From: Bilabrum cf. latius
Taxonomy: Eukaryota
Length of the DNA: 64,000 nucleotides
Reading direction: 5' to 3'
Assembly: GCA_965178125.1 (NCBI GenBank)
Contig: OZ237761.1
Location: 124,001-188,000, forward strand
Shown piece by piece: positions 1 through 54,600 of this stretch (within the stretch, counting starts at the first letter, position 1; each line of letters begins with the position of its first letter). A model generated the notes under the pieces. The model was given only the letters and a program-made list of their open reading frames with translations, was not told the origin of the DNA and did not search any database. A program made the position numbers and the translations under genes.

Positions 1-2672
1 CGGTGCGCGAATCCCTTGTCGCAATTGCCTTCGATAGCCCGCTTCGACGAATGTCGGATGACCAGCTCAGGCCAGAGTTTGCGGAGGCATGGTCCCTGCT
101 CATGAGAGGCATGCAGGCCGTGCGGCTTGGCACCTTAGTGACCGTCGACCTGTCTCTGGTGTCATCTTCGTTCGTCAGATCGATGTCTTCTCATGGGCCG
201 GCACCAAGCCCATCCGATGGTCTCGGGGGTTCAGATCTGCAAGAGCTTTGTCGCGTCTTATTGCAAGAAGGTGCTGCCACTGCTGCAAATGGTGACAATC
301 CGATAGGCCAGCATCGACCGGCATCTCAAGTGCAGCCTTGCGAGGCACACCGACTTCCTGCGACTGTAGAGTTGCTACTGCAGTGCAAGCAGCCATTAAC
401 TTTGCAGGAGGCCATGGCAAGAGCGGCGTTGATTGGCAAGGCAATGAACCCACCACAATCAGGTAGAGTTGGACAGGGGAGCGGTGCAGCATCCGCCCCC
501 CGGCCAAGCCCATTCGAGATGGCCGTCCGATGGAACTGTTCGGAAACGATTCGGGCTTGGTTGCGCGGAACACTGCAGACGACTAGCAGCTCCTCGAGGA
601 TGGATCCGGGTACTTTGCTCGTTATTCAACTCGGCTTAATCGATGCTACTTTGCGCGATGCTGGTGCAGTAGTAGCTTGCATTCTGCAAGAGTGTACAGA
701 ATTCGTGGAGGTGCTTTATATGGTCGACAACCATTGCCTTCAGTAGCTGGCATCACCGAATGGTGCATCTGAGGGCGAATCACCTACCAGGGAGCGGAGC
801 GACACAATGTGCAGGGATGATTGGAAGCAGCTCATTTCGCAGCGCAAGTGGGAAGAATGGCTCCCAAGCATCAATACATCACACTTCTCCTGCTTGGAGT
901 CAACAGCTTGGAGTATGCACTCTGCTGACGAAGCAAAGGAATCGGTTCGGTTGTTGTGGGCTCTGGTGAATCGCAAGTTCAGCGTCGCTCGTGTCTTCTG
1001 GAGGTACTGCTCCGAGCCTCTGCGGATGGCTCTGTACGCGGCACAGGTTCTGCGGAAGCTAGCAGGCACGGATGATGCAGCGCGCACCATGCTGCTGAGT
1101 GAAGCGGACTGGTACGAACGGTTTGGTATATAGGTGCTCGAGCACGGTGGTACTAGCAGGGACTTCCGTGGGTGGGACAAAAAGGATCGGCAGAACGTTT
1201 CACTGTGGCTTAGGTCCACAGCACCGAGGTCTCAAGTGATATGCGATGCCATTCTTCAGTAGTACTCGGTGTCAAAACACATCGAGCATGGTAGGTGCTG
1301 TTGGTACATGTGTTGGTCTTGCTGTCGGGATATGCCGTCTTGCTGTCAGAGTTGTTTCTGCTGTCGGGATGGCCTGACTCAGGTGACCCGCCTCCACCGC
1401 GGCTCAAACATCATCCGATTGGCTCAACGCTCTGAGTCAATGGAGTTTATGGGCCATCCGGTGGTGCAGAGGCAGCTGCGATGTCTTTGGCGACACAACA
1501 CTTGGGAGAAGCCATCGGGGGGACTGACCACAGTATGGGGATGCTGCCGAGTATGGGACTGCTGTGCAAGCTAGGACTATTCTGCTAGGAACAACTGGTT
1601 TAATGCACCACGCACGCGGTGCTGGTTGCATTCGATTTCTCGGGTTGCCCTCACTATCCTTCATGCTTGGGTGGTTCTTCAACACTACGATGAGCCGCGA
1701 GCTCGGCTATTTCTTCCCATTCTCTTCTTCGTATGGAAGGGCCTGCAGCTTTTGGAGGACAGTCTAGTTGCTGCTAGGCTGGGCATCCACGACATCTCCG
1801 TGTGGGATGCGCTTGGTACTCTTGATTACGCGGCAATGTTTGTAAGCCTAGGGCTGTTCACGGCTGCTGGCATTGGTGACAATGGTATCTTGCACGACTA
1901 TTCGATGGATGTGCTTAGCGTCTCGTTCATTGTGGCGTGCATCCGTCTCCTGGACATCCTCGCAGTCATAGAGTTCTTTGGCCCGATGGTTATCACCATC
2001 AATCGGATTCTCTTTCTGGATATCACGCTGTTCCTTGTCCTCCTGGTAGTATTCGTGGGGGGGTTCGCAGTCACGATCACGGCGATCTTCGTTGTTAGGA
2101 ATCCAGACGCAGGGAACGGTGGGGATTTTTCGGGTCTGGAAGACTTGCTATGGTCCATGTTCGGGGATTGGACCCTACCGCTGTCGAACGCAGACAGAAA
2201 TGAGCACGGCAGTGACTTCTACCTCGGTCTTGGCAAGGCTCTGCTGGGTCTACACATGCTGCTGTCCACCATCGTGATTGTGAACTTGCTCGTGGCCCTG
2301 ATGACCTCCTCGTACGAGAACACGCACAGAGGCGCCCAGCTCCGGTTTAACTTCTCTATGGCGCTGCATGTGCGCAAGCACCGTCTCCTGTCTGCTCTCC
2401 CTGCTCCACTCAATCTGGTTGGTTGGATAGTTGGTAGGTCATGCTGGGAATACGGTTGCAGTTAGAACACTGAAGAAGCAGAGGTGGATGCATCAAGTGG
2501 TGGTCCATCCATCAGTTGGAACTAGGTCTCTCTCGAGACAGGGCAGCAGCTACCTGTCATGCGGGCCCTCAAGGAAGATGAGAAAACCAAGGTCAGGTTC
2601 ACGAGGTATCGAGCCTAGCGGAGGCTTGTGGCGAGACTAGAGGCAGAGGAGAAGAGACAGGAGACCCTGTGA
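1..2672 (+). CDS. TRPM-like cation channel, copy 1 (5' part outside the window); read through 7 in-frame TAG codons
   Basis: Track ORFs 3-746, 807-1133, 1269-1574 and 1626-2465 share one frame and are separated only by TAG. First TGA is at 2670-2672. TRP-type features: LLWALV..AR.FW, TM segments, FFGPMVITI, pore LLWSMFG, S6 IVIVNLLVALMTSSY, LPAPLNL. The terminal TGA overlaps a possible GTGAGT donor. Confidence 0.85.
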
Positions 2673-3436
2673 GTCCATCCGAGGCGCGCCAGGCAGTCAT
2701 GCGGGCGGAAATCAGCAGGGCCAAGCCAGCTGCATTTCAGGCGTAAGACCACTGCGGCAATTGGATGATCGCGCGTGCCCAGCACTCCCCGCACGTCTTC
2801 CTCGGTCGGGACTGGCAGGTCGTCGCACACCGCATCTGTCCAGCCTTTAGTACGCGTTTGATGCCCCCGAAGTCCGCCGCACCTGGATTGGCCTGGTAGT
2901 GCAGATTTTCGGTGGAGCAAGCATGGTGACCTAGACCTGGCAAGTTCACTTGCACATCAGGATTGAAGGGACGAGAGCGGCTGTAATCCGGACGTGGAGG
3001 TGGGCACCGACAGCAAGAGAGATTGGAGAGATGAGGCTCGTTAAGGATTGGGACACCGGCACAGGCGACGATAGTGCGGTGTCAATGAAAGGAAACAAGG
3101 AAACAACGGGAGGGGACTTTGGGTACAAGGCACATCTGAATTCCGGATGGGAGACAGGTGGCATTCTCAGAGGCATCGGGCGTAGCCTATATATATCGGG
3201 GGGTATAGCCAGCATCCCAGATTGAGCGGAGCAGATTGACCCAACAGGCAATGGTACCTAGTTACGGGTATTACGTGAATTGAGCAAGTGAAGAAGATGC
3301 ATTTTTTGCTATGTCAGCTATACCCAATCCGATCTGGGTTACAACGTTATTGCGTAAGGGGCAAGGTAAGAATCACTCTTTTTATAGCATGCCCCCCCCC
3401 CCCCCCCCTCCGCCTGCCAGCCCTCAAGTAGACTTA

Positions 3437-3671
3437 TCAGGAATCCGGATCATGCGCGGTACTTGGCCTGACCGTGGGCCAGCAGGCACACAGGTAGCCT
3501 CTTTGCACGAGACTGTTGCTGCCCACGTCTGGCTTCATTGATTCGCCTCCGCCAGCACTCTTTCTGCTGGCACCCTGCAAAGACTTCCTGAGCTCGAATT
3601 CGATGCGGGCCACGGTCCATTGCACTCCCCCCGACCCCGCCTGCACACTACACGAAGGCTCCTTTACCTGC
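3437..3671 (-). pseudogene. 3' remnant of the MaoC-like gene, truncated at the LINE junction
   Basis: Matches the last ~78 codons of the gene ending at 56467. The upstream part is replaced by LINE sequence. Confidence 0.85.
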
Positions 3672-6600
3672 CCGAGGTGAGTTGTGTAGCTAGGATAGCT
3701 ATGCACAACTGGCAGGACTACAACCCCTCGATGGCTCGTCCGAAGCTCTCATTGGCCCTTTGCTACAAGCGTCGGATTGCACGTCGGCACCGTTCTTGGA
3801 GTTGTTCGAGGGTGCCCTGGACGATTGAGAGCTCCAGGGAGTCTGTGTCTCCTCTTTGGACTTGTGTCAGCACCTGCTCCGTTTTGACGTGTTCCATCCT
3901 TAGTGCTCTCCCCACTGCCGTGGGTGCCCAGGGTACGTCCGTGTGCGTGGCTTCCGCGCGCATCATTTCGGCCTGTACCAAGCGTTCTCCACTGTGGTGC
4001 ATGGTCCCTTCCCTAGGGTAATGCCCAGTGAACCATCGTAAGATGAGTCGGCCATCTTGGCCTCGCCAGGTGCTCCGTGCTGTCGCTGGCATGGCCGATG
4101 GACCGAGGATCCGGGAATTGTCCAAACCGATGCAGCTCTGTAGGTGCCTCATGCCTACAGAATCCTCTCGAACTTTGCCCAGGCGTCTGTCGCTACCGAA
4201 TGCATCGTTTCTGCTTCGCGCAGTATACCGGCAGCGTGCGTGCTGGAGCTCGATTTCAGCAGTGCAGTCGCGTCCCGTAGGATATCCCATATACGGGCAC
4301 AGCCACGAGGTGAACGTTCGTTGCTTGCGGTTCTTGGTGTTGAAGATCATCTGCAAGGCGGACTGGTCTCGTGCGCCGTGTTGGCGCCTGTAGACTGCGG
4401 CCATGTTCGCCATAGGTCCCTGGGCACTAGGTTCGTGCTTGACCATGTACCACGCGGTTAACTGCATATGGGCAGGTGTGTCTCCGCTCAGCAGCACCAG
4501 TGAGCACCAGTGAGCACCAGTGACAGCTGTACGCCTGCGAGATTGCTCTGGCCATCGCGTCGGCCGGCCAGACCAGCGCCCTGACCGTGGCCTTCGGCAA
4601 GAAACGGCCGTCTCCTTTCTTAGGAAGTCGGGGGGATGCTTCGACCAGGGCGGCCCTGGCACAGTCTAGGACCTCGTTGACAAAGTTCAAAGCTGCCTTG
4701 TTCCAGACTATACCTGGTACGTAGGTGCATTTCACTGTCTTGCGTTTTAGCTCCTGCTCGAAGCCTGCTGGTGCCGCTGAGAGGTAGAGGTCTTGCAGGA
4801 CCGTCCCGTAAACTGCACTGTACAGGATCGAAGACAGCTGTGCAAGGCTCCAGTCGGAGTTCACGGCTGCTTGGCAGATGTCCGCAATGCTTCGTCTTGC
4901 CTTGCCAGCTTGCCTCTCCACGTGCTTCACTGGGTCCAGGACGTGGAGCTGTCTAGTACTTCCGTCAGCCATTTTGACCGGTGCCCGCCTGGTGTGCAGA
5001 CGGAAGCCGAGGTAGTCGTACTTGTGGACCAGTCGGATTGGCTCAGGTGGGGCCGCGGCTAAAGTACCAGGAAGTTGCTCTTGGATCCTGACGTTGAGCT
5101 CCTCTGGGGTGAATGCAACTGCACGTCCGCTTTCCACGTCGTCGTCCGTTGCTTCGAACGCCTCACGCGCCAGTCCGGTCGCCATTACGGCTGTCTTGCT
5201 TGTGTAGCCATTGTTGACTGCTCTTACGCCCAACTCATGGCCAGACTCATGGTGTCCGATGGAGAGCACTGCTACAGCCGTTAGCGAGCCGCTCTTGCAC
5301 AACATAGTGACGCAGGTGTCGTCCGCGTACAGCGTCTGTGGCTTCTTCTGTGCGATGTCCCAATCGGCTGTCAGCGGTGCCGCTTGCGGTCCTGCGCACG
5401 CCTGCCTGACGTACTCGTTCGCAGGTACCATTGATACCGCGAAGCCATCTGGGGAGATGGGATCTCCCTGGCATGTCCCCTTTCCTCGCTCGAATGGTTC
5501 CGATCGGGTGTTGCTTGGGCGGTGGTACACCTCCGCTTTAGCTTTCATACTGTTGACGAATGCGCTCGAAGCGGTCGCGCTCAGTCCAGCCTTCTTTAGC
5601 GTATACCGCATGATGGGTCACTGGACTCGGTCGAATGCTGCTTTCAAGTCTCCGAACATGAGCACGAGGCCCTGCTTCCCCGCGGTGAAGGTCTGCTGCA
5701 GAATCTTCAGGATCGCGATCACTCGGTCACGGCGCAGCGTGAAGCCAAACTGCGAGGCTCCTTTCGTTTGACGTTGAGCCATAACTTCCTGGCAGTTGCC
5801 GAGCAGAATGTTGCCCAATACCTTTGCAATCTCGTCTGCGTACTGGATGCATCTGTAGTCACTGCATCGGAAGTCACGGTCGTCCGGCTTGCCTTTGAAG
5901 GGTGGCGCAATGAAAGTGCGCAGGAGGGTCAGTGGGTACTATCCGCACACCATTGCGCAGTTGTGGATAGCTTGAAGGGCCTTGAGGAGTGTGTCAGGGT
6001 ACTTGCGTTCTCCGTCGGCGAAATCGAATGTGAGTCTGATTGCGCGTGTTGGCACCCCGCTCGGCCCCGTAGCCTTTCCGGACTTCAACTACTTGATTGC
6101 AGTCGAGATGTGTTCCTCGGCAGCGTCATCGGTCACCAGCATGCCAATTTTCGGGGATGTTGACATGTGTTGGCCCAGGACCTCGATGAATCTTGAGAGA
6201 CCCTCATCAGTGGACGTGTCCACTGTGTTGGCCGTTGCGTTGGTAGCGCTACTGGAGTAGTACGCCGCCTGGGCGTCCACTGCCTCCTAGGCATTGGAGG
6301 TCCGTGTCCCGTCTTCGCGGTCCACCGTTGCAATAGCTCGTTGCTTTGATCTTCTGGCCCCGAGTTGGCTCGATATCGTGCGGTACGCCTCGCGGGCAGG
6401 TAGGACCTTCAGAGCCTGTTGGAGTGCGTGGGCATCGCAGCGGATACGATCTCTGGTGAGACGTGTCACTGATATCGTGTCACTTCCTGCAGCCGCAACT
6501 ACTCGTTGAAGCACCATCTTGTTCGCGAGGTTGCTCGGTTGTAGGTCTGCGGGGGCCAGGGAGACAGTGCAGTCGGGAGCAGATGCTTGCCCCAATCGCA

Positions 6601-9330
6601 ATTGGTCGCTACCCTAGCCTGTACCCGTCGTCGCAGTTTGCTGATCCTTTTGATCATGGCGTTGGCCTCTGGGCACTTGCCAGACCCAATCTCCCTTAGT
6701 AACGTCTCGCGCCTGTCTGCGTGCTTGCTTTTGATCTTACGCAGCAGGGAGGCAGCTGTGTCCCGGATACAGACAGTCTCAGTCAGAAGGGATGCGTCCT
6801 TGTGTCGCTGGAGTCTTGCTCTTTGGGCCCTTTTTACCATGCGAGAGATCTTCGCACGGTGCTGGAGGCGGCTGCGTGGGGCTGCTTGTTGGCGCTGGGC
6901 TGGTCCAACCGCGGCCCCGCAGGCTTTGGAGTCACAGACTGCCAGCGTGGAGACCAGATGTTCCAATACTGTCGTGGCTTGGCCAAGGATGCTGGCCTTT
7001 TCATCTCCTCCCGCTCCCGAGTCTCCACCTAGTGTCAGGGCTGCTGTGCTCGCCTGCTTGCTCAGGTCCATCAGCTATGGCTATTCGGCCAGCAACTGTG
7101 CCATCTTCCTGCGGTATCGGCGGACTTGGGCTTTGGTACGTGGTCTCCGTAGCTTGTCTGGCGCCGTGTCTAGGGTAGCACTTGGATCGTTGTAAACTTG
7201 TGACCTGGTAGTCTCTACCCTCATGGCTACGGGTGAGTGATCCTAAGATCCGGGATTTCGAAGGACTGCACCTCCTGTCCAGAGCGCTGACCCAGCGAGG
7301 CCCACGTCTAGGCAATTACCTCCGCCATGTGTTGGCATCCACGGGGTCCGAAGGCTCAGACACGGTTCACCGTCCTCCCTGGTGGGGGCGTCCTCCATGA
7401 TGTCCGCTTCTCGGTGCGTGTTCAGGTCGCCAATCAAGACGGTCTGATCCAGGTCAAACTCGAACCTTTGCCCATTGCTTGTAGTCCAACCTGTTTGCAT
7501 GCACCTAAGTAGGCGCTTATAGTCCCCGCGATGCTCGCCGTCGAGGGGGTTGTAGCATCCAACTGCGTGAACTGTGCGGCTCCCTGCGACTGTCACATTG
7601 ACGATGAGGCAGTCCCGGATGTCCTGGGGCATATCTGCTGGCTGAATGGGGCAGAACTTGGTCATTAGTCGTGGGTTTGTGTTCCAGACCGCTGCAACCC
7701 CATGAGTGCCTCCTTCCGTGGGTGTTAGCCACACGCCTCTGTACGTCAGGTTTGGCACTGCAAGTGGCAGTAGCTTCTGGTCCATGGACGAGTCAGAGCT
7801 TCGGCCGTACTCCGTCATGAACAGCAAGTCAGGGGCTTGCGTTAGTTGGAGTGCACGCTCGATGGTACTCAGTTTCCTCGACTTGTTGACGTTCAGGTGG
7901 CCGCAGCGGAATTCTTGGGGGCGATGTGCCGCTTCCCAGGTAGTGGTCTAGTGCTTGGCAAGAGTCATTTCGTTCTCAGGAGTCATCTACTTGTGTGAGA
8001 TGGCACGGACTGTCTAGGCTGGGTCATCTCGGGCTTCTATCTCATGTCGCCGGTACTCTCGGTGTTCCCTGATGCGTCGTGATGGTGTGATGGTCCGTCT
8101 TGTCCCCGCGTATCCGACTGTGGACCGGTTCAGGTAGTCGCGGTTGCCGATCGCCGCTGTCTCCGGCCGACCTCGGCGGTCAGAGGAGAAAGCTGGCACC
8201 TCCAGTGTGCCGTTCTTACATTGTCTGTATAGTTCTCTGTCGTGCTAGTCCACGAGCTCGGACTCGCTGCCCTCGCAAAGGCTCTTGAAGAGGCTCTCCG
8301 AGGGGAACATGTCGTATGCCACTCTTGGTAGTTCCCGTCCGGCAATCTTGTCGAATGATCCTGCGTTGATCGACTTGGCCAGGGCTGCACGTTGCGCCTT
8401 CGAAGGGCTGCCCCAGAATCCTACTGCTGCGATGAACTTGTGTCCAAGACGTGGGCCTGGAGCTTTGTCGAACTTCGCCGGTGCGTAGGAGCCCAGGGTT
8501 AGACGTCGGAGTGTATTCGCAGAGATGTCCTCCCTGGTACCGTTTGCTACGCCGTCGACGTACAGGTATGGAGTCCTCTGTTCGCTGGCCATGGCCGTCG
8601 GCGAGGCCTTCATCGTGATGATCGAAGCGGCGTGGTCTATGCTGAGCAGGAGGACTCGAGAGGGAAGCTTCAGGTCAGGACCGTCGATGGCCCTTCTCAT
8701 GCTGTGTAGGAGGCTGGATACGCCCATGTCTGGGCTGGCCACCATTGGTCTGCACCACGTGTGGTCGTATCCATCCGCCGAGGCAAGGCGGGCCACTGCT
8801 GTCAGCATCCTCCCAATGGTGGTGCACCTATTTGCCGAGACGATGCAGTTGTCCGAGTCCTACAGGCGGCATGCCTACTGCATTGAGAGGGGGACAGCGC
8901 TGACGACCTGAAGGGCAAGCGTATGACACTGTTTAGCTGGGAGCCTGTACGATCCGACGACATGGTCTCCGGAGCTCTACCAATCCAGGAGGGCCTCTCC
9001 AGACGGGATGGGGCCCCCGTTGAGCTCGGCCATCGTCTCCACTGCGGACTTCATGTCCTCATCGGATGGGTGCTGGCTCGCCAGGGTGTCTTCTGTTGCA
9101 GCCTTTTCTGCCACGTTGTAGTTGGTGCCCAAAGTTCTGCACTTGACGCTGGGACAGGCGGTGCGTCGTCGTGTGTCAGGGCCACTGGTTCGTGCGGGAG
9201 GTCGAGCTCAAGTCCGTGTCTTGCGTAATCCAGAGCAGTTGAGTCTTGGGCAATGCACGCGGCCGAGGGTTTGCTCAGCAATATCCGGGGCATCGTTCGA
9301 GCGTTGACCAGCGCCTGAGGTCCTCTACGT
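3672..9330 (-). mobile_element. Non-LTR retrotransposon (APE endonuclease + RT), degenerate, 3'-truncated; 5' boundary approximate
   Basis: With TAG read-through one frame runs from ~9200 to ~6600 and contains APE motifs HLNVN, FMTE, IGDLN, CLD, DHSPV. RT motifs follow: KSGKATGPSG, DYRCI, DLKAAFDRV, QGDPISP, YADD, YLG. Lesions: frameshifts near 6600 and 4500, and a TGA at 5618-5620. Confidence 0.9.
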
Positions 9331-9341
9331 GGCTAAACTGA

Positions 9342-11649
9342 TGTTGTCTGCATTCCCATGAGGAAGTAGTGACCTCCAGTGGTATCAGTCCCATCGAGAG
9401 TCTGGGCACGCATGGCTACGCGAGCACGGCGGAGCGCAACATGCAGGCACTTCCGGTTTGGCTCTTGCAACCGGCTACTGGGCACCTGGTGTCCTACGCA
9501 GATGATGAAAGAGCCATTGTGCAAGACAAGCGAGGCGCTGCTATCGCTACGGTCGCCGCACAACTCAATCACGAACTGTCCGGGGGAAAGCTCGGGTATC
9601 GAAAGCCCAAGAACGGCAAGGGAAGCAAGACGGCCATCCTTGCCACAGGTAGAGCATTCAACTCATTCGGACTCACGGAGGACCAAGTCCGCTCGGGAGC
9701 GACTGCTATCTCCATCGAGGACCAGAAGCAGGCACTGGAAGAACTGAATGCGAAAGGCCTGAACCCAGCCCAACTCACGCCCGTCTTCGAAGAGATCCCG
9801 ATGGTGCTCTCATACGACTACCTAGGCGTCCTCATCTCTACCAAGCCGGTGGAAGTGAACCATACCGATGGATCCCAAGAGACACTGCGGCTGCTTGACC
9901 TCATGCCGCACGTGCATAGGCGCTGCGCGATGGCTGAGACCAGCATCAAGAGAATATCCAATGCTGCAATCAACAGCGACTGGAGCATCGAGCAGTTCTC
10001 CACCATCCTCTTCCAAGCAGTAGTGGGAACTGCCCTAGACGGCATCCACGCGGTGGCCGCGTGCACGGACCCCCCCGAGGTGCGAAGACCAGAATCTTAC
10101 AAGGACTAGCAAACTGGTACGAAGAAGGACGGCTCACACAACTACAAGCCAAGGTACAACAGCAAGGCTATCAGCAGGATTCAGAAAACTCTGGACACCG
10201 CCCGCCATGCCATTGCCTCCGGCATGGGCTGTGAACGCCCACAACGTGTGGACACCATGTTCCTTGGGGCCACCATGCTCCGACACCTCATCTGGGCACC
10301 GAGCGCCCTGACAAGAGCGGATCTCGCTACATACCGGGCAGCAGTGGACCGGATCAGTGAGGACTCCTTCGACCTCATTAGATACTCACTGTGGAAGTTG
10401 ATGGAAACGAACGAAATCTAGGGGACCAACCTTCCATGTGGGCCCCTCAGAAACATGGCAGCCATCCTCGTGCAGACACATGGCAATGCCCTGTAGGTGC
10501 TCAATCTAAGGACAACCACCAAGACAGACCGAGCGGTCCATACCGAGAGCTTCAAGGCCGTGCTGCACCATCGCAGTCTGGACAGATAGTGCCCGAAAAT
10601 GCACGAGACAAGCTCGCATGCTGAAAAGTACGCAAGGCTCTTCGATAAACACCCAGGTGGAAGGCGTGCGGGACTAAGCGACCTACTTGGAGTCTCCCAT
10701 GCACAGTGGTTTGGACCGAAGTGCATCCCACGAACGGTACGTACGGGACTGCCGGGAGCCGATTCTCGCCGTCTCCTCCGAAGACTGACAGGATACTACC
10801 CTAGGGCCTGCAGTGCCTCGGACAAGACCAAGGAACACGTCCTGGAATGCATGACGCAAGCAGAGTCCCTGCACAGCGCTTCAACAATTCCATGGCAGGC
10901 CACTGAGGCAGGCAGGAAAACGTGGATCAACAGTGTGACAAGCACGGACCCATGGCTCGCGAATGAACCCACAATCCGGGAGAAGCTGAGTGAGGTGGAT
11001 CGCCGCAGTACGTGGTCTCTGAAACGTCTCATTCGACACTTCCTCGCAAGGAATCCGGAGCTGGACACTACTTGCCCGCAGATTGCAGCTGTACAAGCCT
11101 TCCTCGAGGAGTCTCCGACTGTTCGCCGCAAGGCACTCTCCCTGGGAATACCCTTACCGCTGGCTATCTCCTGCCAGATACCCGGGGTGGAGACAAGCAT
11201 TGGATCGTGGTCCTCTGGCTCTACCTAGCGCAAGGTGCTCAGACGCCTAGAACGCCGACTCGACAAGGCATGGACAGTTCGGCTCGCCTCGGCAGCACAT
11301 GCCACCTCACAACTCAGAGACGAATTCATGGCCACTCTATCACGCCGACGTGCGTGGTGGCGGCGACCTGAAACATTGACGGTGCAGGCAGCATCAATCG
11401 CGATCTGCCCATCACCGTTCGCGTTCCCCAGATACTAAAGCAGTTTTGGGGGATACCGGTGCCACAGCGACCGCTGTGGTTGGGTGCGAGGGCTTGTCCC
11501 GCAACAACCCGCCTGTTTGGAATTCTGCTTTTACTATGTTAGGTGTTCTACCGCACAGTACGAGTAGTTTTTCGGATTTTCGAGTTGTGTGTTTGTACAC
11601 TATCGTGAATTGCATCTTAAACCAGAATTTCCTTCCTTCCTTCCTTCCT
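9342..11649 (+). mobile_element. 5'-truncated non-LTR retrotransposon of a related family (RT C-terminal half), with (TTCC)n tail
   Basis: Single frame 9342-11438 with 5 TAGs, ending in TAA. Contains YADD and YDYLG and is clearly similar to the minus-strand LINE (AINSDWS vs AVNSDWS). TTCC repeats at 11629-11649. Confidence 0.85.
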
Positions 11650-24800: not shown

Positions 24801-27800
24801 ACCAACTGCAACCATGTGTGACTGTCTGCGAGATTAGGGTGCTGTGTACAACGTGTGATCTCAGTTGGTGAGGCCAGCAAGGTCTCTGAGATTGAGGTCG
24901 CTCGGTGGGCGCAGGACCCGCTCGAGGAGCAGGCTCAGATGCGACGTAGCGATGCGGAGGAGTGCGAGAGAGAGAGAGAGAGAGAGAGAGAGGGCAGCTA
25001 GGGGGGGGAGGGTAGAGCAAAGGGAGGGGGGGACGACGGTTCACCGGGACGGGGGAGGAAATGGTGGAAGAGAAGATGATCGGTGGGGTCATTGGGTTGA
25101 TGAGGCGGATAGGAAGGGGGAGGCACAGGCCGGGCAGGTGTGGGTTGGGCATGTGTGACGAGTGACTCGGATCAGGGGGATCGGATCACCGACCACATGC
25201 GGATGTGGAAGTTGAGAGGTCACAATTAGACTCGAGCGGCAATCAAGCCGCGTGCTATTCGGGCGCTGAGGGGCAGCGTTCGCCAGTTTTCTTTTTTTGG
25301 TAACTTTGAGGATGGGCTCTCGGAGGAAACCAACTGCAACCATGTGTGACTGTCTGCGAGATTAGGGTGCTGTGTACAACGTGTGATCTCAATCATTTGT
25401 GCCTCATGATCGCTCATGCCGCATGATGCAATCTACATCTGCAGGATATAGTGGGCTAGTACCTGCTGCGATATATTGAGGTCAAGTCTCAGTCTGGTCT
25501 CGAAGAGTCGCCCCGCAGGACTGAGGCAGCACCGGCGAGGATCAGCACCAGCTTTCACCACGGAGAATGTCCTCTCTACTTCGGCACTTGAGAGCCTCCA
25601 CAGCAGGATCATTTTAGCGGTTCGGATCGCCACACGAACAGCTGCAATTTTGCTGTTGGACAGCACCGGCAGGCCGGCTCTGTCCTCCTTGAAGACCAAT
25701 AGTCTCAGCGCCTCAGTTCCGGAGAAATACGGCTAGAACTCATCAATTATCCCAGCACCTGAGGCCGGCGCTTCTTCCACGCTTTCTCCATCCGACATAG
25801 ATTCTTGGCTGGGACCAGCGACCTGGTCTGCCTCGTTCAGTCGCGCTACTCGTAGCCCTTCTACATACAATCCGAACTGCTCATCAAGCAAGTTCCAGAA
25901 AGTAGCCGGACTGTCTTCATCAGTCGGTGTTCCTAGGGCCTGTAGAGTAGCCAAACCATCAAGTGCGTCACCTGCTTGGACAATATCCAGCCCAATAGCG
26001 CGCAAATCGGCTGCAGTCCACTCTGGTAGCTTTGCTTTCGGAAGCATGGCCTGTGTCACCATGTCAAGCTTCATGCGAATCAGCACTACTACTGGGAACT
26101 TGAGGGGATTTGTATAGTCTTGTACCGAGCTTTTGATAGCAGGAAGCTGACTGCCAAATGCCTTAGAGCGATCCTCTATGAAGCCGGTCAGCGCCACGGG
26201 CCCCAACTGTGCTGCGCAGTGTTGCCCTACGAACTTTCCCGCCCAGTAATTCTCGTCCCAGCATTGAAGTGACTCAACAACAACCAGCACTTTGCGCAGT
26301 ACGTAGTCATGCAGTATACGAGCCTCTAGCTGAATGATGGTGCTGTTGATATCCTCTAGGACCGTACACAGCACCGACATCTCCGACAGTAATTTTGTGA
26401 TGCAGGCATCTTCTCCAAGCTCGACACCGGTAACACTTCGCTGTTGCAGCAGATCCTTCAAAGGTGCTGTGGACGGCTTCACATCTGCTTTCTCCATAAA
26501 CTTTCGGAGCGCTCGTAGCCGTTTGCCACCGTCCTCAGATAGATGCAACATGGCAGAGTAGGCCCGCCCCCACCGTGTCTCAGCGAAGCAAATGACTGAC
26601 CAGCGAATTCCAATATCCAAGAGGTTTTTTCTCAGCTTGTTCTCAGCGCTTCCAAAAGCTGCATTCATAGCCTGTCGCAGCTTGTCGAAAAGCGATACGG
26701 ACAGCAGCCGCTTGACCTAGTTGTGCAGCATGTGGCACAGGCACGCCACCCTGGGCAAGCTTAGCAAGGGACAGTATAAATCCAGACGAGGTGGCGCCTC
26801 AGCTTCGCCAGGTATGGCTGCTGCGCCCTCATTCTAAGGAAAATCTGCCGGCATCTTCCGCGTCGGTCCACCCTGAAGCAAGCCAGCAAGCGCGGCATTG
26901 GCGGTGCGGTTGGCTGAGTGGTTGTCAGTCACCATACCAACGACAAAAGACCCAAGCCCTAACTTTGACTAGAGCTGCTGCATTACCACCCTTCCTATTG
27001 TATTCCCATCTCCTGCTACCTCGGGAACCAACGACAGGCAGGCCTGGGTAGGTCCATCGGGGCCCCAGTAGTGCACGACGATGGAGAGAAGCTGCTTCTC
27101 TTTCGGTAGAGAATTTGATAGAGTAGTTGCATCGAACTCTAGGAGTACGTCCTTGCCCGCGGTTGTCTTGCGCAGCACATTGTCAGCGACAGCAGCGGCT
27201 GCGAGGCGATCGCTGCTTACTGTGCTGGGGCTGGTGCCATACTCAGAATGTAAGGTCTGGGGGAGAAACTCCCATGCCTTGTGAAATATACTTCGGATGG
27301 GCATAAGCGTAAGGTCAAGCCTGAGGGTCCGCGACTAGGCCAGGGCTGATCTGCCTCTTCGAATCACCAAGCCCGCTATGTCATCAATGACTCGCCAGTT
27401 CCGGCATGCAGCAATGCACCTTGCTATTTTCTGCTTTGGCTCCGGCCCTGCTCTCTACCGTTGAAGCGATTGAATTATGCTTTGCTACCGCTCCAATCGA
27501 AGTGCCTTTTGTGGCGGCTATTCGTTTGGCTCATCTTCACCGGTTTCTTGGGGGCGGCCGGGGCCTGCACCGCTTGCAGCGCCACCCCCTGCTGCTTCTG
27601 TGCTTGGCCTACCCCGCTTGCTCCCAGCGCTATGGTCGCGGTACATATCCTTGAGTACGTTAACGTTGTATACTGTTGTTATGAACCCATCCAAACTACA
27701 CATGCCGTGTACTCCAGCAACTTCAAGCAGCAGCAGTGAGCTCACCCTCTCCCGCACGATTCCCACCTTCTGGTCTGCCTGTCGATATAGACCCACTTGC

Positions 27801-28213
27801 ACTATGTTCACCAGTTTCCGCACGAGACGTTCACCCTGAGCTACAAACGGTCTATGCTGAGGCTTCGTCAGCCGGAACTCCGCCTCCCAGACCCGGGCAA
27901 CACTGAGGTTGTGCTCTAACTGCTGCACTGCAGGGTCTAGCACATCAATCGTAGAGAATCCCGCCGCGCTGGAAGGGCTAGACGAGCTGGAAGAACTAGA
28001 TGAGCTGGAAGAACTAGATGAGCTGCTACTTGTTGCTACTGGGCGGGTAAAATCGCTTGATGCCATGGCAGCAACAGGTGAACTTGCTGTATCCGCCAAT
28101 TTATACGCTCCACTCAACGAATCAAACGCTTCCCGTGGACGAAGTACATTAGCTGGAGTATTTAGTTCATAATGAAGGGCTGGATCCCTTTTGGCACCTG
28201 CCTTGCGAGGCAT
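18823..28213 (-). CDS. hAT transposase, 969 aa once the YR retroelement is removed (segments 28213-25391 and 18909-18823); 9 in-frame TAGs, TAA stop
   Basis: Motifs LEFDATT, MVTDN, CLCH (CxxH), ETRW and SSAEVERTFS. No TAA or TGA in frame before 18823. Confidence 0.88.
21050..21557 (+). repeat. (GGTGCT)n hexamer array in the gag-like region, probably encoding (Gly-Ala)n
   Basis: About 500 bp of degenerate 6-bp tandem repeats. Confidence 0.9.
21925..23622 (+). CDS. Reverse transcriptase-RNase H of the YR retroelement (true start and stop uncertain)
   Basis: Motifs IPK..G.R.ITDMS, LDWSKFF, MGSRSSP, YVDD, FVG, WCDAS, AEL, HSDS, NQLADRLSR. Confidence 0.9.
   Translation: MYDGDGLEMDPLFPLLDGPPTTAGGWKSLSDGEKAVAIRLWGAPLCLDGSPLPAPVPAHSGSGSSSGEQLLEGGLALGRGWRIAVPGAVAPRCRASRTIMIPKAHGAGSRSITDMSAFDSSGLRQGPNRQINPEPYAEAVMDRIDVLGSKLRAMEAACLRRGEPAEFTLFVLDWSKFFRLLPTDLTEAGAVWGSFGQVAMIDVTASMGSRSSPAFACTLGRGFHQAFRDRLREVTPQQLCDMGTYVDDCAVICITRHADWLLARLHHDSEALGLRVSVSKARTQDLSPSTEFVGYHVDGEAMRVSLTAHKQAQLLETLDTLLTPGSVTVGREVEVVTGRLLHAADALWVLRPLLAPLLSLYLPLRRQGRLVQRVAVPPSVVPSLRLVREVIAANPGRSFPRRFDVDRDFSVWCDASTTGFGAVLRHGRRRAVAACFYGTWAVTLGPGDMPAAELAVAVMAVEVWGSRLRNRIVEVHSDSSAAVKALRKGRSDSERMNALLHHALRHSALLDFAIYPQHCPSRFNQLADRLSRMSQLSSKQRTASMTRLGQPAHRQICPWPIWLVL
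23478..24670 (+). CDS. Tyrosine recombinase of the YR retroelement (ends approximate)
   Basis: FRLGEL, TNKS, GHSLR, then after two TAGs QFGGWDSPNSVRAY containing the W and the catalytic Y. Confidence 0.82.
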
Positions 28214-28774
28214 ACCTGCGATTATTGAGGGCTTCAGGCGGCAAAAATCAAAATGCTTGAATCAAATTTTAAAGGCCATTTTTAGCGTACGGCTGATTTT
28301 CTAGGGTGCGCCGGATGTGTGGCCCGAAAACAGCCCTGATGGCGCACCCAAAACGACGGAACCTAGGGTGCGCCGCGGCGCACCCAAGCTGTGAGGTCTG
28401 CCGGTAAACTAGGCCTAGACAAAGCCATGAAAAACCAGTTCATTCTTCTTCCTGTTCCATGAAATCCAAAATCATTGATACGATCTTAGAGTGGCATTCA
28501 TTCAGTCCGTGTAAGCCAAGCCGGAATGTGGTCAAATCGACATGTCCTTCTGAGGGAAAAACGAATCAGCCACAATCGTAGAGGTATCCGACAGCTGCAA
28601 ATACAAGACCTACAAGACAGACCAACGTAGAATAGGTAGCGATCCTCCTCCTAACCACATCTGACTGTAGGAAGCACTGCACAGCTAGCGGACCTTTCCA
28701 ATCCGATCCACGACAACAGCCGGAAGTTGCAAGGTTCCCGGGTGGTCAAATACGCAAGCAGTCATTCTTGAAGC

Positions 28775-29791: not shown

Positions 29792-29965
29792 GTCATGGGT
29801 GAACTAGAGATACCAGCTACAAGTGAAATCCTTGGCATAGTGGGAAAGGGGCGCCCACAACTGGATCGGATGGGATGGGATGCCGGGAGGTCGACAGGAG
29901 TTGTGTGATGGTTGGTTGATGGGTATAGATACTTCTAAATCATTGATACGATCTAAGAGTAGCAT

Positions 29966-30238
29966 TCAGTTTGTATTGGCTTTCACAGCCACCTTGCTGG
30001 TGTCCGTCTTCAAGGCATCAGCCATCATGGCAAGCACGTTCTCGTCCAACCTGCCCCCCATCCTCTTGGTGAGGGCGTTGGTCTTGTGCTTGCGAGTCTT
30101 CTCGTGTTGGCTCTTGTTGCAGTAGCTCAGCTCGACGTTGCAACATGGGCACGTGTACCTCAATTTTGCACGATCCTTGAACTTCTGCTTGTTGGCTTGG
30201 TAGTATTTCCTCATGTAGTCTTTATCGTTCTTTGGCAT
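29966..30238 (-). CDS. Small basic Zn-finger protein (virus-type)
   Basis: YMRKYYQANK followed by CPCC...H..T.KH; TGA stop. Confidence 0.7.
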   Translation of the reverse strand: MPKNDKDYMRKYYQANKQKFKDRAKLRYTCPCCNVELSYCNKSQHEKTRKHKTNALTKRMGGRLDENVLAMMADALKTDTSKVAVKANTN

Positions 30239-30308
30239 TCTATCAATATATATGATCCATTCTTTATATGGTTTTAAATAGTTTTTATTATTTAAAATCA
30301 ATTTAGGT

Positions 30309-32056: not shown

Positions 32057-32151
32057 CGTTGCTATATCTAAATTGAGAAGTCTTTAAATGGCTTAACATG
32101 GAAAAATGTATTTTAAACCACTTAAAGAAATATTCCTATAGCTATGGTAGA

Positions 32152-42304: not shown

Positions 42305-42344
42305 ATTTAAATGTTACATGAGATGTAGCATGTAAATAAAATGT

Positions 42345-46200: not shown

Positions 46201-48240
46201 TGGGGAGGGGGGAGGGAGCCGTGTGCAGTATCGGCGTCATGTCCTCGAGGGCAGTGCGAGCTGGTGCTGTGGGCGACCGGGTGTGAGGTGGAGAGGGGGG
46301 AGGGAGCCATGTGCAGTATCGGCGTCATGTCCTCGAGGGCAGTGCGAGCTGGTGCTGTGGGCGACCGGGTGTGAGGTGGGGAGGGGGGAGGGAGCCGTGT
46401 GCAGTATCGGCGTCATGTCCTCGAGGGCAGTGCGAGCTGGTGCTGTGGGCGACCGGGTGTGAGGTGGAGAGGGGGGAGGGAGCCATGTGCAGTATCGGCG
46501 TCATGTCCTCGAGGGCAGTGCAAGCTGGTGCTGTGGGCGACCGGGTGTGAGGTGGAGAGGGGGAGGGAGCCATGTGCAGTATCGGCGTCATGTCCTCGAG
46601 GGCAGTGCGAGCTGGTGCTGTGGGCGACCGGGTGTGAGGTGGGGAGGGGGGAGGGAGCCGTGTACAGTATCGGCGTCATGTCCTCGAGGGCAGTGCGAGC
46701 TGGTGCTGTGGGCGACCGGGTGTGAGGTGGAGAGGGGGGAGGGAGCCATGTGCAGTATCGGCGTCATGTCCTCGAGGGCAGTGCGAGCTGGTGCTGTGGG
46801 CGACCGGGTGTGAGGTGGAGAGGGGGGAGGGAGCCATGTGCAGTATCGGCGTCATGTCCTCGAGGGCAGTGCGAGCTGGTGCTGTGGGCGACCGGGTGTG
46901 AGGTGGAGAGGGGGGAGGGAGCCATGTGCAGTATCGGCGTCATGTCCTCGAGGGCAGTGCGAGCTGGTGCTGTGGGCGACCGGGTGTGAGGTGGGGAGGG
47001 GGACGAGAGCCGTGTGTAGTATCGGCGTCATGTCCTCGAGGGCAGTGCGAGCTGGTGCTGTGGGCGACCGGGTGTGAGGTGGAGAGGGGGACGAGAGCCG
47101 TGTGTAGTATCGGCGTCATGTCCTCCAGGGCAGTGCGAGCTGGTGCTGTGGGCGACCGGGTGTGAGGTGTGGAGGGGGGAGGGAGCCGTGTGCAGTATCG
47201 GCGTCATGTCCTCGAGGGCAGTGCGAGCTGGTGCTGTGGGCGACCGGGTGTGAGGTGGAGAGGGGGGAGGGAGCCATGTGCAGTATCGGCGTCATGTCCT
47301 CGAGGGCAGTGCGAGCTGGTGCTGTGGGCGACCGGGTGTGAGGTGGAGAGGGGGGAGGGAGCCATGTGCAGTATCGGCGTCATGTCCTCGAGGGCAGTGC
47401 GAGCTGGTGCTGTGGGCGACCGGGTGTGAGGTGGAGAGGGGGGAGGGAGCCGTGTGCAGTATCGGCGTCATGTCCTCGAGGGCAGTGCGAGCTGGTGCTG
47501 TGGGTGACCGGGTGTGAGGTGGGGAGGGGGGAGGGAGCCATGTGCAGTATCGGCGTCATGTCCTCGAGGGCAGTGCGAGCTGGTGCTGTGGGCGACCGGG
47601 TGTGAGGTGGAGAGGGGGGAGGGAGCCGTGTGCAGTATCGGCGTCATGTCCTCGAGGGCAGTGCGAGCTGGTGCTGTGGGCGACCGGGTGTGAGGTGGAG
47701 AGGGGGGAGGGAGCCATGTGCAGTATCGGCGTCATGTCCTCGAGGGCAGTGCGAGCTGGTGCTGTGGGCGACCGGGTGTGAGGTGGAGAGGGGGGAGGGA
47801 GCCGTGTGCAGTATCGGCGTCATGTCCTCGAGGGCAGTGCGAGCTGGTGCTGTGGCTGGCCGGGTGTGAGGTGGAGAGGGGGGAGGGAGCCGTGTGCAGT
47901 ATCGGCGTCATGTCCTCGAGGGCAGTGCGAGCTGGTGCTGTGGGCGACCGGGTGTGAGGTGGAGAGGGGGAGGGAGCCGTGTACAGTATCGGCGTCATGT
48001 CCTCGAGGGCAGTGCGAGCTGGTGCTGTGGGCGACCGGGTGTGAGGTGGAGAGGGGGACGAGAGCCGTGTGCAGTATCGGCGTCATGTCCTCGAGAGCAG
48101 TGCGAGCTGGTGCTGTGGGCGACCGGGTGTGAGGTGGAGAGGGGGACAAGAGCCGTGTGCAGTATCGGCGTCATGTCCTCGAGGGCAGTGCGAGCTGGTG
48201 CTGTGGGCGACCGGGTGTGAGGTGGAGAGGGGGAGGGAGG
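43298..48240 (+). repeat. 87-88 bp G-rich satellite, about 56 tandem copies
   Basis: Unit gtgtgaggtggagaggggggagggagccatgtgcagtatcggcgtcatgtcctcgagggcagtgcgagctggtgctgtgggcgaccgg, with no unique spacers. Confidence 0.97.
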
Positions 48241-50142: not shown

Positions 50143-51190
50143 GGTAGCCATGTCTCCCAGTTTGTTCCGGTATAGGGTCGGTCGCAACCGTGATCGACGC
50201 GCACCGGATTTATGTGTTGCAGCTCTCTCTGTGTTCAGGAGAGGGACGGAGTTTGGGTTAACTCGTTTTGTGGGCAGCAGCAGCGGTCCTCCCAGCCCCG
50301 ACGGCTGCAGGTGCATCGGCGAGGCAGTTGGCGCTCAGCTGCCCCAAGCAAGGGCCGGTTTTCGTGGTAGGGCAGCGGCCGCTGCTCAAGGCCACTGTCG
50401 TCCGCGTGCTCCGTGGCTACTGCCAGCTCGGCGAGGCCGAAGCGGTGCACGGCCACTCCATCCGCATCGCTGCAGTGATGTGCCTGGACCGAGCAGGCGT
50501 CGTCGCCTTCGAGACTATCAGGCGATTCGGGCGGTGGAAGTCAGCTTCTTCGTGTGAGGTATACCTACGTTCAGCCAGAGAGGGCCTTCCCCCTCTTGAG
50601 CTCCGTGGGTCAGATCTCTAGTTGAAGCAGCCAGCATGGGTGCTGGCGCGCGCCCTTCTGCTCGCGGTGACGTGATTCACTCGGGCAGAGGCGTTCAAGA
50701 CATGGCACTGAAAGAATTGGCGGAGTGGTGCAGTGGCTCAGCTCGGACCTGGTGAACAGGCCCAGAGCAGCGCCAGCCTGCACAGCTTTGTCAAGGACTT
50801 GCCATGTCTGATTGATTGGGAGACTAGTTTGCGCTATCATCACGAGCATCATATACCTAACGCCGGATGGGGTTCGGGTTTGATGCGACGATGGGAGCGC
50901 AGGTAGCCATGTCTCCCAGTTTGTTCCGGTATAGGGTCGGTCGCAACCGTGATCGACGCGCACCGGATTTATGTGTTGCAGCTCTCTCTGTGTTCAGGAG
51001 AGGGACGGAGTTTGGGTTAACTCGTTTTCCCACCCTCCCAGTTCCCCCTCCTCCTCGGCGGAGTGGTGCAGTGGCTCAGCTCGGACCTGGATGAACAGGC
51101 CCAGAGCAGCGCCAGCCTGCACAGCTTTGTCAAGGACTTGCCATGTCTGATTGATTGGGAGACTAGTTTGCGCTATCATCACGAGCATCA
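50143..51190 (+). mobile_element. Third, miniature YR retroelement with split direct repeats and a YR C-terminal remnant
   Basis: A1 50143-50268 equals A2 50901-51027. B1 ~50719-50902, B2 from ~51057. Remnant GHSIR...FGRWKS...VY. Confidence 0.82.
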
Positions 51191-51601
51191 GCTCAGTAAT
51201 ATCGGCTATCCTTTAAATGGGTTTAAATAGGTTTGCCTATTTAAAGAAAAGGAGAAGACGCGCGGGTTTTCAGTCGGTTCTGATGCTGGAGTGGCTCGCG
51301 TATGGCCCTTCGTCCGGTTTGTCGTACGTCTTGCCCTCCCCTCTGACTCAACGTCGGTGTGGCTCGTCTTGTGTCCTTTTGATGGTGGCGCATTGGACCG
51401 CCACACCTTCAGTTTTTTTCCTTTTTGTAGAATTTCCCTATATTTTTATTTTTTTTCGAATGTGGCGTTCCAATGTTCCATTAGTAGGCTGTGTTACTTT
51501 TTCCTCAAATTTGACCAAAAAGAAATGTTCCAATATTCCAATTTCTAAAAATAGTTCAAAAATTTGAAAGTATATAGCCCTGAAAACAGTCCCTAACGTT
51601 A

Positions 51602-54600
51602 GATTCCTACCACTGGTGTAGTGGAGCTTTAGCGGAACGAGGGTGTCCTGGCGACATCGCCGACGTAGTCTTGGGGGGGGAGGGAGTGCTGGATCAGATC
51701 AAAACAAAATGGGACTTCAAGGATGTACCAGGCGAGTTGTACAGTATAACAGGTGGTGCCGATCTTGCAGGTATGTCTCGCGATCACCAGGCTGCTTTTG
51801 TGCACGGAATAGCAGCCGCAGTTGGCTCCAACGGATCATGGGTAATCACAGGAGGCTCGGACGCCGGAATCATGCAGCTTGCTGGAAAAGCACATTTTGA
51901 TGCAGCATTATATTCACCGTGCATTGGAATCGCAGCATTAGGCAAGGTGTTCAATACTTCCAAGGAGATCCGACAAGTCGATAAAGGCGGCGAGACTCCT
52001 ATATAGTATAAACTCTCTGAGCCCCCTTTCAGGGGTGCTACCAAGGAGGAACACAAAACCCGACTGAACCCTGATCACACGCATTTCATTTTTGTTCGAC
52101 CTCCTGTAGGACGAAAAATATCGAAGTGGGGGGACGACAACAATTTTCGCGAGGCCCTCGAAGGGGAGATCGCAAAGACCGCCTTCACGGTGCAGGTGGT
52201 CGCAAGCGGGGGCCCCGAGACCATGAAGACCGTGTCCAGCGCGGCCCATGCCAAAATCCCGATCGTGCTTTTCAAGGGATCTGGGCGAGCCTCTGACGTC
52301 CTCTGCAAACTGAGTGCCCATGCTGAGCATTTGAGCGAGTTGGACGACTCGTGCCCCCGCGGCTGGTGCCCGGATGGCGCCAAGCACACTGCAGCATTGA
52401 TGGGCAAAGATCACTATCAATACCCAAATGTCAACGTTTTCGATCCGATGAGCATCGAGGTCTGGAAAACAACGAAGCCACTCACTGCGTGCATCCCTGG
52501 CAAAGTGCTACAATGGATGGCGACGAGGTCAAATCCACCAAATCTCGACGATTTCGACAAATACTGTGCCAACGGGTGGGGAGCATGGACAACTACCAGC
52601 AGGACGTATGAAGATTGGCTGGACAGGCATGTGCGGTCGCGGCCAGTTGCTGCTAGATCTGGCAACGGTCAAGCGGCAGACGGGCAAGCGGCAGGCGGGC
52701 AAGCGGCAGGCGGGCAAGCGGCAGACGGGCAAGCGGCAGGTGGGCAAGCGGCAGGCGGGCAAGAACCAGGCGGACATCGGCATCTAACCAATTCAGATAT
52801 CGAGAATCTTTGGTGCTGGTGCGTGCATATACACCTCCTGCACATGGGTGCGATCCTTCGAGTCAAGCGTAGGGGCGATGAAGCAACGGGTACGTGGAAT
52901 TCACCGCGGCGAAGCAGTATCACCCACCGCGTTATGTCGAGAGCTGCAAGCACCCCTAGTGCTCCTTCGGGGCACTACTCAAGCATTCGCATCACGCCCG
53001 ACATGAACGACGACAGTCTCAAGGTCAGGGACACGGTGCGCGAATCCCTTGTCGCAATTGCCTTCGATAGCCCGCTTCGACGAAGGTCGGATGACCAGCT
53101 CAGGCCAAAGTTTGCGAAGGCATGGCCCCTCCTCATGAGAGGCATGCAAGCCGTGCGACTTGGCACCTTAGTGACTGTCGACCTGTCTCTGGTGTCATCT
53201 TCGTTCGTCAGATCGATGTCTTCTCATGGGCCGGCACCAAGCCCATCCGATGGTCTCGGGGGTTCAGATCTGCAAGAGCTTTGTCGCGTCTTATTGCAAG
53301 AAGGTGCTGCCACTGCTGCAAATGGTGACAATCCGATAGGCCAGCATCGACCGGCATCTCAAGTGCAGCCTTGCGAGGCACACCGACTTCCTGCGACTGT
53401 AGAGTTGCTACTGCAGTGCAAGCAGCCATTAACTTTGCAGGAGGCCATGGCAAGAGCGGCGTTGATTGGCAAGGCAATGAACCCACCACAATCAGGTAGA
53501 GTTGGACAGGGGAGCGGTGCAGCATCCGCCCCCCGGCCAAGCCCATTCGAGATGGCCGTCCGATGGAACTGTTCGGAAACGATTCGGGCTTGGTTGCGCG
53601 GAACACTGCAGACGACTAGCAGCTCCTCGAAGATGGATCCGGGTGCTTTGCTCGTTATTCAACTCGGCTTAATCGATGCTACTTTGCGCGATGCTGGTGC
53701 AGTAGTAGCTTGCATTCTGCAAGAGTGTACAGAATTCATGGAGGTGCTTTATATGGTCGACAACCATTGCCTTCAGTAGCTGGCATCACCGAATGGTGCA
53801 CCTCAGGGCGAATCACCTACCAGGGAGCGGAGCAACACAATGTGCAGGGATGATTGGAAGCAGCTCATTTCGCAACGCAAGTGGGAAGAATGGCTCCCAA
53901 GCATCAATACATCACACTTCTCCTGCTTGGAGTCAACAGCTTGGAGTATGCACTCTGCTGACGAAGCAAAGGAATCGGTTCGGTTGTTGTGGGCTCTGGT
54001 GAATCGCAAGTTCAGCGTCGCTCGTGTCTTCTGGAGGTACTGCTCCGAGCCTCTGCGGATGGCTCTGTACGCGGCACAGGTTCTGCGGAAGCTAGCAGGC
54101 ACGGATGATGCAGCGCGCACCATGCTGCTGAGTGAAGCGGACTGGTACGAACGGCTTGGTATATAGGTGCTCGAGCACGGTGGTACTAGCAGGGACTTCC
54201 GTGGGTGGGACAAAAAGGATCGGCAGAACGTTTCACTGTGGCTTAGGTCCACAGCACCGAGGTCTCAAGTGATATGCGATGCCATTCTTTAGTAGTACTC
54301 GGTGTCAAAACACATCGAGCATGGTAGGTGCTGTTGGAACATGTGTTGGTCTTGCTGTCGGGATATGCCGTCTTGCTGTCAGAGTTGTTTCTGCTGTCGG
54401 GATGGCCTGACTTAGGTGACCCGCCTCCACCGCGGCTCAAACATCATCCGATTGGCTCAACGCTCTGAGTCAATGGAGTTTATGGGCCATCCGGTGGTGC
54501 AGAGGCAGCTGCGATGTCTTTGGCGACACAACACTTGGGAGAAGCCATCGGGGGGACTGACCACAGTATGGGGATGCTGCCGAGTATGGGACTGCTGTGC

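Follow-up and report, generated by a model that had tools for sequence, protein, structure and literature searches.

A duplicated TRPM-like gene with CAG/TAG exchanges

Our analysis covers a 64,000-nt stretch of contig OZ237761.1 (assembly GCA_965178125.1, positions 124,001 to 188,000, deposited under Bilabrum cf. latius), referred to below as the window, in which a gene for a TRPM-like channel is present in two near-identical copies with TAG codons in frame. The original prediction for this DNA, made from its letters, held that two differences between these copies, CAG in one and TAG in the other, are synonymous and that TAG encodes glutamine. The window has a GC content of 56% and contains long interspersed element (LINE)-like, long terminal repeat (LTR)-like and transposase-like elements, a satellite of 4.9 kb and a GT..AG intron of 370 nt. 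Its features are listed in Table 1 together with those of a related metagenome contig, L001.

Table 1. Features of the window and of contig L001 (window positions unless L001 is named; ORF, open reading frame)
Feature	Position	Strand	Remarks
TRPM-like channel ORF copy 1, truncated by window start	3..2672	+	889 codons, 7 in-frame TAG, stop TGA
TRPM-like channel ORF copy 2, complete	51584..55705	+	1373 codons, 10 in-frame TAG, stop TGA
Second copy of duplicated block	53034..56701	+	98.3% identical to 1-3671
Tandem in-frame TAG TAG, copy 2 codons 903 + 904	54290..54295	+	relative L001 has TAC TAC here
Gln973 codon CAG of HPxxQ motif, copy 2	54500..54502	+	homologous L001 codon is TAG
Decayed non-LTR retrotransposon (LINE)	3664..9207	-	19 in-frame TAG over four frame pieces; Exo_endo_phos 21.7 bits
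Diverged related retroelement ORF	9342..11438	+	5 in-frame TAG (one at 10494-10496), stop TAA
Intact 1011-codon ORF	25226..28261	-	9 in-frame TAG, stop TAA
Protein-primed family-B DNA polymerase	30309-31289	-	Pfam DNA_pol_B_2, 3.5e-9
D5-type primase-helicase N-terminal domain	32077-33234	+	D5_N 22.2 bits, slightly below 22.4-bit cut-off
Satellite array	43310-48239		56 copies of 88-bp G-rich unit, 96% matching
MaoC/HtdX-like hot-dog ORF	56467..58518	-	5 in-frame TAG, stop TGA
Ubiquitin-conjugating E2 gene	58524-58748 + 59119-59337 (exons)	+	GT..AG intron 58749-59118, 0 TAG, stop TGA
GDSL lipase-like ORF	59721..61046	+	2 in-frame TAG, stop TGA
NF-YC/POLE4-type histone-fold ORF, acidic tail	61047..62510	+	6 in-frame TAG, one in fold at 61581-61583
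L001 TRPM paralogue	1-4650 of L001		1550 codons, 25 in-frame TAG, 0 TAA/TGA within, stop TGA
L001 CDC20/Fizzy, WD40 part	4828-6012 of L001	opposite to TRPM paralogue	Pfam 1e-60, 2 TAG, stop TAA

The two copies of the duplicated block differ by 38 mismatches and 3 gaps. In the ORF that they share, Pfam recognises LSDAT_euk (84.9 bits, 8e-24), TRPM2 (32.1 bits) and YVC1_C (28.0 bits), each above its cut-off, and Ion_trans at 22.2 bits, under its cut-off of 25; the matching chains of known structure are those of TRPM2, TRPM8 and TRPM3, with E-values down to 1e-22 (TRPM2). By these matches the gene is predicted to belong to the TRPM channel family, with an N-terminal LSDAT/SLOG region, a TRPM homology region and a six-helix ion-transport domain. 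A library search for its relatives gave three weak matches.

All seven in-frame TAG codons of copy 1 are also present in copy 2. At two further places, as predicted and in frame, the copies differ: CAG at 1257-1259 lies opposite TAG at 54290-54292 (codon 903 of the full ORF), and CAG at 1380-1382 opposite TAG at 54413-54415 (codon 944), 41 codons further on in the TRPM-like frame. Over the 889 shared codons there are 26 substitutions (10 synonymous, 14 non-synonymous and the two CAG/TAG exchanges) and no indels; the 3′ flank of about 985 nt has 12 substitutions and 3 indels. Counting TAG as glutamine gives a dN/dS of 0.37 between the copies (P = 0.012 against neutrality), and not doing so gives 0.51 (P = 0.078); the copies show purifying selection together with their lack of indels.

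We compared the number of exchanges with the rate of other changes, using a neutral transition rate of 0.008 per site, taken from third positions and the flank, and 31 CAG and TAG codons at risk. If TAG is synonymous and neutral, 0.25 exchanges are expected and the probability of at least two is 0.026; if the exchanges are constrained like other replacements, 0.09 are expected (probability of at least two 0.004), and 0.04 for a radical replacement. A synonymous change is therefore favoured about 6-fold (constrained replacement) to 36-fold, which agrees with the predicted synonymy, although with two exchanges this is suggestive only.

The end of the duplication (3668-3671 / 56701) falls within a truncated LINE copy at 3664-4686, which is 92% identical to 13565-14174, and this repeat family may have brought about the segmental duplication.

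Long reading frames open across TAG

With TAG read as sense, the longest ORFs outside repeats have 1373, 1011, 913, 889, 698 and 683 codons, as against a maximum of 590 under the standard code; among 60 sequences simulated with a second-order Markov chain the longest ORF averaged 419 codons, the highest being 531. Reading TGA as sense gave frames of up to 1736 codons, located only in the 88-bp satellite or in GC-rich low-complexity sequence at 19.5-25 kb; the satellite array accounts for such spurious long frames, and outside these regions the maximum was 590 codons, which we graded as within the simulated range. Reading TAA as sense brought no gain in ORF length. Furthermore, the read-through frame of 1373 codons is a complete TRPM channel without a single TGA or TAA, whereas these two triplets make up 2.6% of the off-frames. 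In five host-type ORFs, 32 of 3995 codons are in-frame TAG, or about 0.8%.

Relatives of the TRPM-like protein are broken at the corresponding codons. The library fragment P0013 (73-79% identical) terminates immediately before TAG codon 732 of the window, and P0016 (95% identical) immediately before TAG codon 861; both lie on a single contig of 1889 nt. A third fragment, P0017, terminates immediately before Gln973 of the window, and lies with its neighbour P0014 on the locus L001, a metagenome contig of 6012 nt with 56% GC. TAG positions are kept in relatives, and that TAG is a sense codon in the window is near certain.

Codon counts and gene ends

Ten ORFs contain 56 TAG and no TAA, as against 135 CAG and 119 CAA, so that TAG would make up about 18% of the glutamine codons in the ORFs counted. 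The zero for TAA is partly a matter of construction, because TAA and TGA were used to set the ends of the ORFs; the part of the TRPM protein where Pfam finds its matches (residues 35-1294) is free of this effect and has 21 CAA, 26 CAG, 10 TAG and no TAA. The ratio of TAG to CAG (56/135, 0.41) is near that of the synonymous first-position pair TTG/CTG (88/204, 0.43), whereas TAA/CAA is 0 as against 0.35 for TTA/CTA. TAA also terminates the 1011-codon ORF, one retroelement ORF and the CDC20 gene of L001, and the gene ends that could be judged (the E2 gene, the TRPM copies and both L001 genes) are all TGA or TAA. TAA is hence not a glutamine codon, and TAA and TGA end genes.

These counts bear on the view that each TAG is a nonsense mutation in a pseudogene or dead transposon, with copy 2 of the TRPM block a decaying duplicate. 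Transposons are abundant in the window, and one of its LINEs is visibly dead; moreover, contigs of three other sequencing runs (X5, X7 and X8) carry only the copy-1 letters at the listed differing sites that they cover, including C at 54290. Decay by C-to-T changes, however, would make TAA from CAA about as often as TAG from CAG, which does not match 56 TAG and no TAA, nor does it agree with an uninterrupted frame of 1373 codons, with TAG positions kept in relatives or with purifying selection on two copies free of indels. For the bulk of the sites this explanation is refuted, and as a general account we regard it as extremely improbable; single TAGs in the dead LINE may be nonsense mutations.

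Amino acid assigned to TAG

The strongest indication of which residue TAG specifies comes from conserved columns in L001. Its TRPM paralogue shares 50% identity with the protein of the window across 473 aligned residues and has a TAG at 2257-2259 (GHPIV-TAG-TILGNLW) in the column of the HPxxQ motif, which is occupied by Gln in 21 of 21 aligned homologues; profile scores there are +3.75 bits for Q, -0.05 for K, -0.52 for E, -0.97 for S, -1.35 for Y and -1.92 for L. (An hmmalign alignment of the L001 protein put most sites in insert states and was not used.) In the CDC20 gene of L001, TAG codon 231 lies opposite the Gln of the SQVC motif in all four human FZR1/CDC20 chains shown, and TAG codon 43 opposite Gln in FZR1 and His in CDC20. 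Scored against PF24807 with TAG read as different residues, this protein reached 209.7 bits for Q, 206.9 for K, 206.5 for both E and N, 206.2 for S, 205.8 for R, 205.5 for X (the neutral reading), 205.0 for Y, 204.6 for L and 203.6 for W.

Within the window, three Pfam families could be scored in the same manner, and Q came out top among the residues tried in all three. CBFD_NFYB_HMF gave 22.5 bits for Q, 22.1 for K, 21.2 for E, 21.3 for S, 20.4 for A, 20.3 for X, 19.4 for Y, 19.7 for L and 18.9 for W; LSDAT_euk gave 84.9 for Q, 84.6 for K, 84.5 for E, 84.3 for S, 83.9 for X, 83.7 for Y and 83.5 for L; and TRPM2 gave 32.1 for Q, 31.7 for K, 31.9 for E, 31.0 for S, 30.7 for X, 29.9 for Y and 29.4 for L. 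A TRPM profile derived from the best 150 homologues in the library placed Q first of 20 residues at seven TAG sites (Q 3.58, K 2.81, E 1.84 and L -3.75 bits). Summed over five profile tests, namely these three Pfam families, the HPxxQ column and PF24807, Q is ahead of K by about 7.7 bits and of E by about 9.4 bits.

How much the window profiles can tell was calibrated by masking every residue type in turn and drawing seven sites at random. Q was ranked first in 0 of 3000 draws when the true residue was Leu or Trp and in about 1% when it was Tyr, so that the finding that Q scores best in Pfam columns excludes Leu and Trp and largely Tyr, and counts only against these three. UAG-only codes with leucine do exist, in rhizarian exLh and in phyllopharyngean ciliates from TARA Oceans (PMC5304391, PMC11687900), L001 has TAC TAC opposite the tandem TAG TAG of codons 903 and 904, and at site 141 of the TRPM protein the TRPM2 structures have Leu or Tyr (at site 861 they have Gly). 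Against a TAG read as Leu, Tyr or Trp, apart from the calibration, every Pfam test scores L and Y lower than the neutral X, the transmembrane part of the TRPM protein has no TAG in 255 residues, and the L001 TAGs lie on conserved Gln columns. This assignment is close to refuted and, in our judgement, highly unlikely.

A number of results weigh against glutamine or loosen the case for it. The same calibration ranked Q first in 61% of draws when the true residue was Glu, 41% for Asp, 33% for Ser and 30% for Lys; it is unspecific among polar residues, and therefore window-only profiles exclude hydrophobic and aromatic readings, including UAG as Leu, and do not single out Gln. All alignable TAG sites of the window fall in variable columns and none in a conserved one. 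In such columns the window TAGs lie opposite E, Y, Y, R and S in L001, and the L001 TAGs opposite Q, T, L and D in the window with ten more in gaps; several of the partner codons (GAG, TAC) are one mutation from TAG, as would be expected whatever TAG means. In the minus-strand LINE, site 321 lies opposite Val and Glu in two fragments that are 82-83% identical, and two CdtB alignments place site 655 opposite the conserved Ser of the SDH motif of the endonuclease, although this LINE is dead. The TAG of the histone fold lies opposite Ala in all five NF-YC alignments shown. The decisive Gln columns sit in L001, a relative or paralogue-bearing contig, rather than in the window; GC content, TAG-only usage and homology suggest that the two use the same code. 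A search for tRNA genes and Rfam matches found none within the 64-kb window. Finally, the absence of TAG from gene ends is partly circular because TAA and TGA delimited the ORFs.

The last point is what would let a TAG of double meaning escape, that is, glutamine within genes and a context-dependent stop at some gene ends: with ORFs delimited in this way, a TAG stop would go unnoticed as read-through. Ambiguous codes of this kind are described for some ciliates (PMC11687900). The gene ends that could be judged nevertheless use TGA or TAA and no case requires a TAG stop, which leaves us considering a dual role very unlikely.

A further alternative is that TAG stands for a polar residue other than Gln (Glu, Lys or Ser), with the two exchanges as tolerated replacements. 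The TAG sites of the window lie only in variable polar columns, where the calibration does not separate Q from E, K, S and D; the LINE offers Glu and Val at site 321 and expects Ser in the SDH column, two LINE fragments terminate where the window has GAG, and in the histone-fold ORF a TAG follows a run of Glu. The LINE evidence, however, comes from a decayed copy, and the TAGs of L001 occupy an invariant Gln (21/21) and the Gln of SQVC (4/4). Q exceeds K by 2.8 bits and E by 3.2 bits in PF24807, the sum of the five tests favours Q, and the exchanges fit about 6-fold better as synonymous changes. We therefore think another polar residue unlikely.

Other attempts to characterise the TAG sites gave little. 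Residues adjoining TAG gave no signal; structure (PDB) searches with the MaoC-like ORF and the 1011-codon ORF yielded no usable TAG column, and neither did Pfam searches with the C-terminus of the latter, the endonuclease end and the GDSL site.

In our assessment it is highly probable that UAG serves in this DNA as a regular though fairly rare codon for glutamine, that UAA and UGA stay stops, and that the TRPM exchanges are C/T transitions that are synonymous because UAG specifies glutamine. The prediction of synonymous CAG/TAG exchanges is thus borne out, mostly by evidence that it did not draw on, namely the L001 columns. A tally of TAG against homologue columns gives Gln at two conserved columns, both in L001, and many residues at variable ones; TAG does not fall mostly on another residue. 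Two further arguments of the original prediction carry less weight. The motifs AL(TAG)VLN (TAG at 10494-10496) and ALQMIFN (CAG at 4351-4353, minus strand), which it set against each other in the two LINEs, both exist and are weak as evidence for Gln: the elements are 26% identical there, BLASTP puts Ser opposite the TAG, the proposed register needs extra gaps, and the minus-strand copy is dead. Likewise, the histone-fold motif G(TAG)DA..LARAVELF, compared by the prediction with POLE4, is present around the TAG in the fold, and its Pfam profile prefers Q over the neutral X. With Ala in the NF-YC alignments it is weak overall; the best solved matches are NF-YC, and POLE4 chains gave no match to this ORF at E <= 1.

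UAG is probably read by a tRNA-Gln with the anticodon CUA, one base from the CUG isoacceptor, and eRF1 presumably recognises UAG poorly or no longer at all. UAA may have stayed a stop because a CUA anticodon cannot wobble onto it.

Neighbouring genes and mobile elements

The E2 gene has one GT..AG intron, and its splice joint (58748>59119) was observed in contigs of runs X5 and X8. A library search with exon 2 returned four matches, the best at 63% identity, and in two runs the contig depth of the gene exceeds that of its neighbours several-fold. Its lack of TAG is consistent with an avoidance of this codon in highly expressed genes.

The minus-strand LINE carries an in-frame TGA at 5618-5620 inside its reverse transcriptase (RT) domain and a frameshift near 6466-6736. 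As the copy is dead, its TAGs are not safe evidence on the code. A library search for relatives of the LINE gave three fragments, and scanning metagenomes with its protein yielded no match. We take the ORF at 25226..28261 to be hAT-like, a presumption drawn only from a C-terminal motif; searches of Pfam and PDB gave it no support.

Direct repeats at 18909-19355 and 24862-25291, 96% identical, bracket an ORF with RT-type RNase H (21910-24426) and long GA-rich low-complexity stretches; the region 18909-25291 is probably an LTR-type retroelement. The block 28300-34200 is lower in GC (~50%), and three of its ORFs (1004 codons) have no TAG, as against ~0.8% in host genes. With its predicted polymerase and primase-helicase domains the block resembles an integrated element of the polinton-like or virus-like type.

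Near-identical DNA to window positions 51000-63000 is present in runs X1, X5, X7 and X8, which stem from four studies and bear four organism labels. This shared DNA may come from an associate or contaminant that went unnoticed, or the four labels may stand for close relatives.

Comparison with other genetic codes

A nuclear code in which UAG alone specifies glutamine is NCBI table 15. Split codes of this kind show that UAG and UAA can be uncoupled, and a further GC-rich, UGA-terminating case would be an independent data point on their origin. There is also a practical side, since the standard code would cut every larger gene of such a genome into pieces, and protein libraries already contain fragments of this sort that break off exactly at TAG.

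Codes in which UAG and UAA differ in meaning are rare, with two cases outside ciliates and a few inside according to two papers (PMC5304391, PMC11687900). The more common departure is the reassignment of both codons to glutamine (UAR = Gln, NCBI table 6), which is found in many ciliates, hexamitin diplomonads and some ulvophyte green algae (PMC2984419, PMC11687900). It shares with the window the reading of TAG as glutamine; TAA is also Gln there, however, whereas the window has no in-frame TAA against 119 CAA, and TAA terminates genes. The UAG-only leucine codes, known from the rhizarian exLh (PMC5304391) and from three TARA Oceans phyllopharyngeans (PMC11687900), resemble the window in that UAG is uncoupled from UAA and differ in the residue, Leu being excluded here by profile scores and calibration.

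Closest are the codes in which UAG alone has become glutamine. In Iotanema spirale (Fornicata), a non-ciliate eukaryote, UAG alone is reassigned to Gln and UAA and UGA terminate, as we find here; UAA is the primary stop there (PMC5304391), whereas in the window, with 56% GC, TGA ends most judged genes. The ciliates Hartmannula sinica and Trochilia petrani also use UAG as Gln, and the reader to be expected for such a code is a suppressor tRNA with the anticodon CUA, which reads UAG only and is blind to UAA, whereas a UUA anticodon also reads UAG by wobble; their preferred stop is again UAA (PMC11687900), as against mainly TGA here. In our judgement, the window with its GC content, transposons, satellite and 370-nt intron is unlike a ciliate macronuclear genome. 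Our literature search, with supplements outside its range, found no GC-rich non-ciliate genome with a UAG-only Gln code.

One possibility, which we put forward tentatively and at somewhat less than even chances, is that the window belongs to a eukaryotic lineage outside both ciliates and fornicates, not yet described or hardly sampled, with an independently acquired UAG-only Gln code and UGA as its main stop, whose DNA appears in runs under four labels as that of a hidden associate would. Overall, the code of the window fits the known rare kind in which UAG alone has become a glutamine codon, together with those of Iotanema, Hartmannula and Trochilia.

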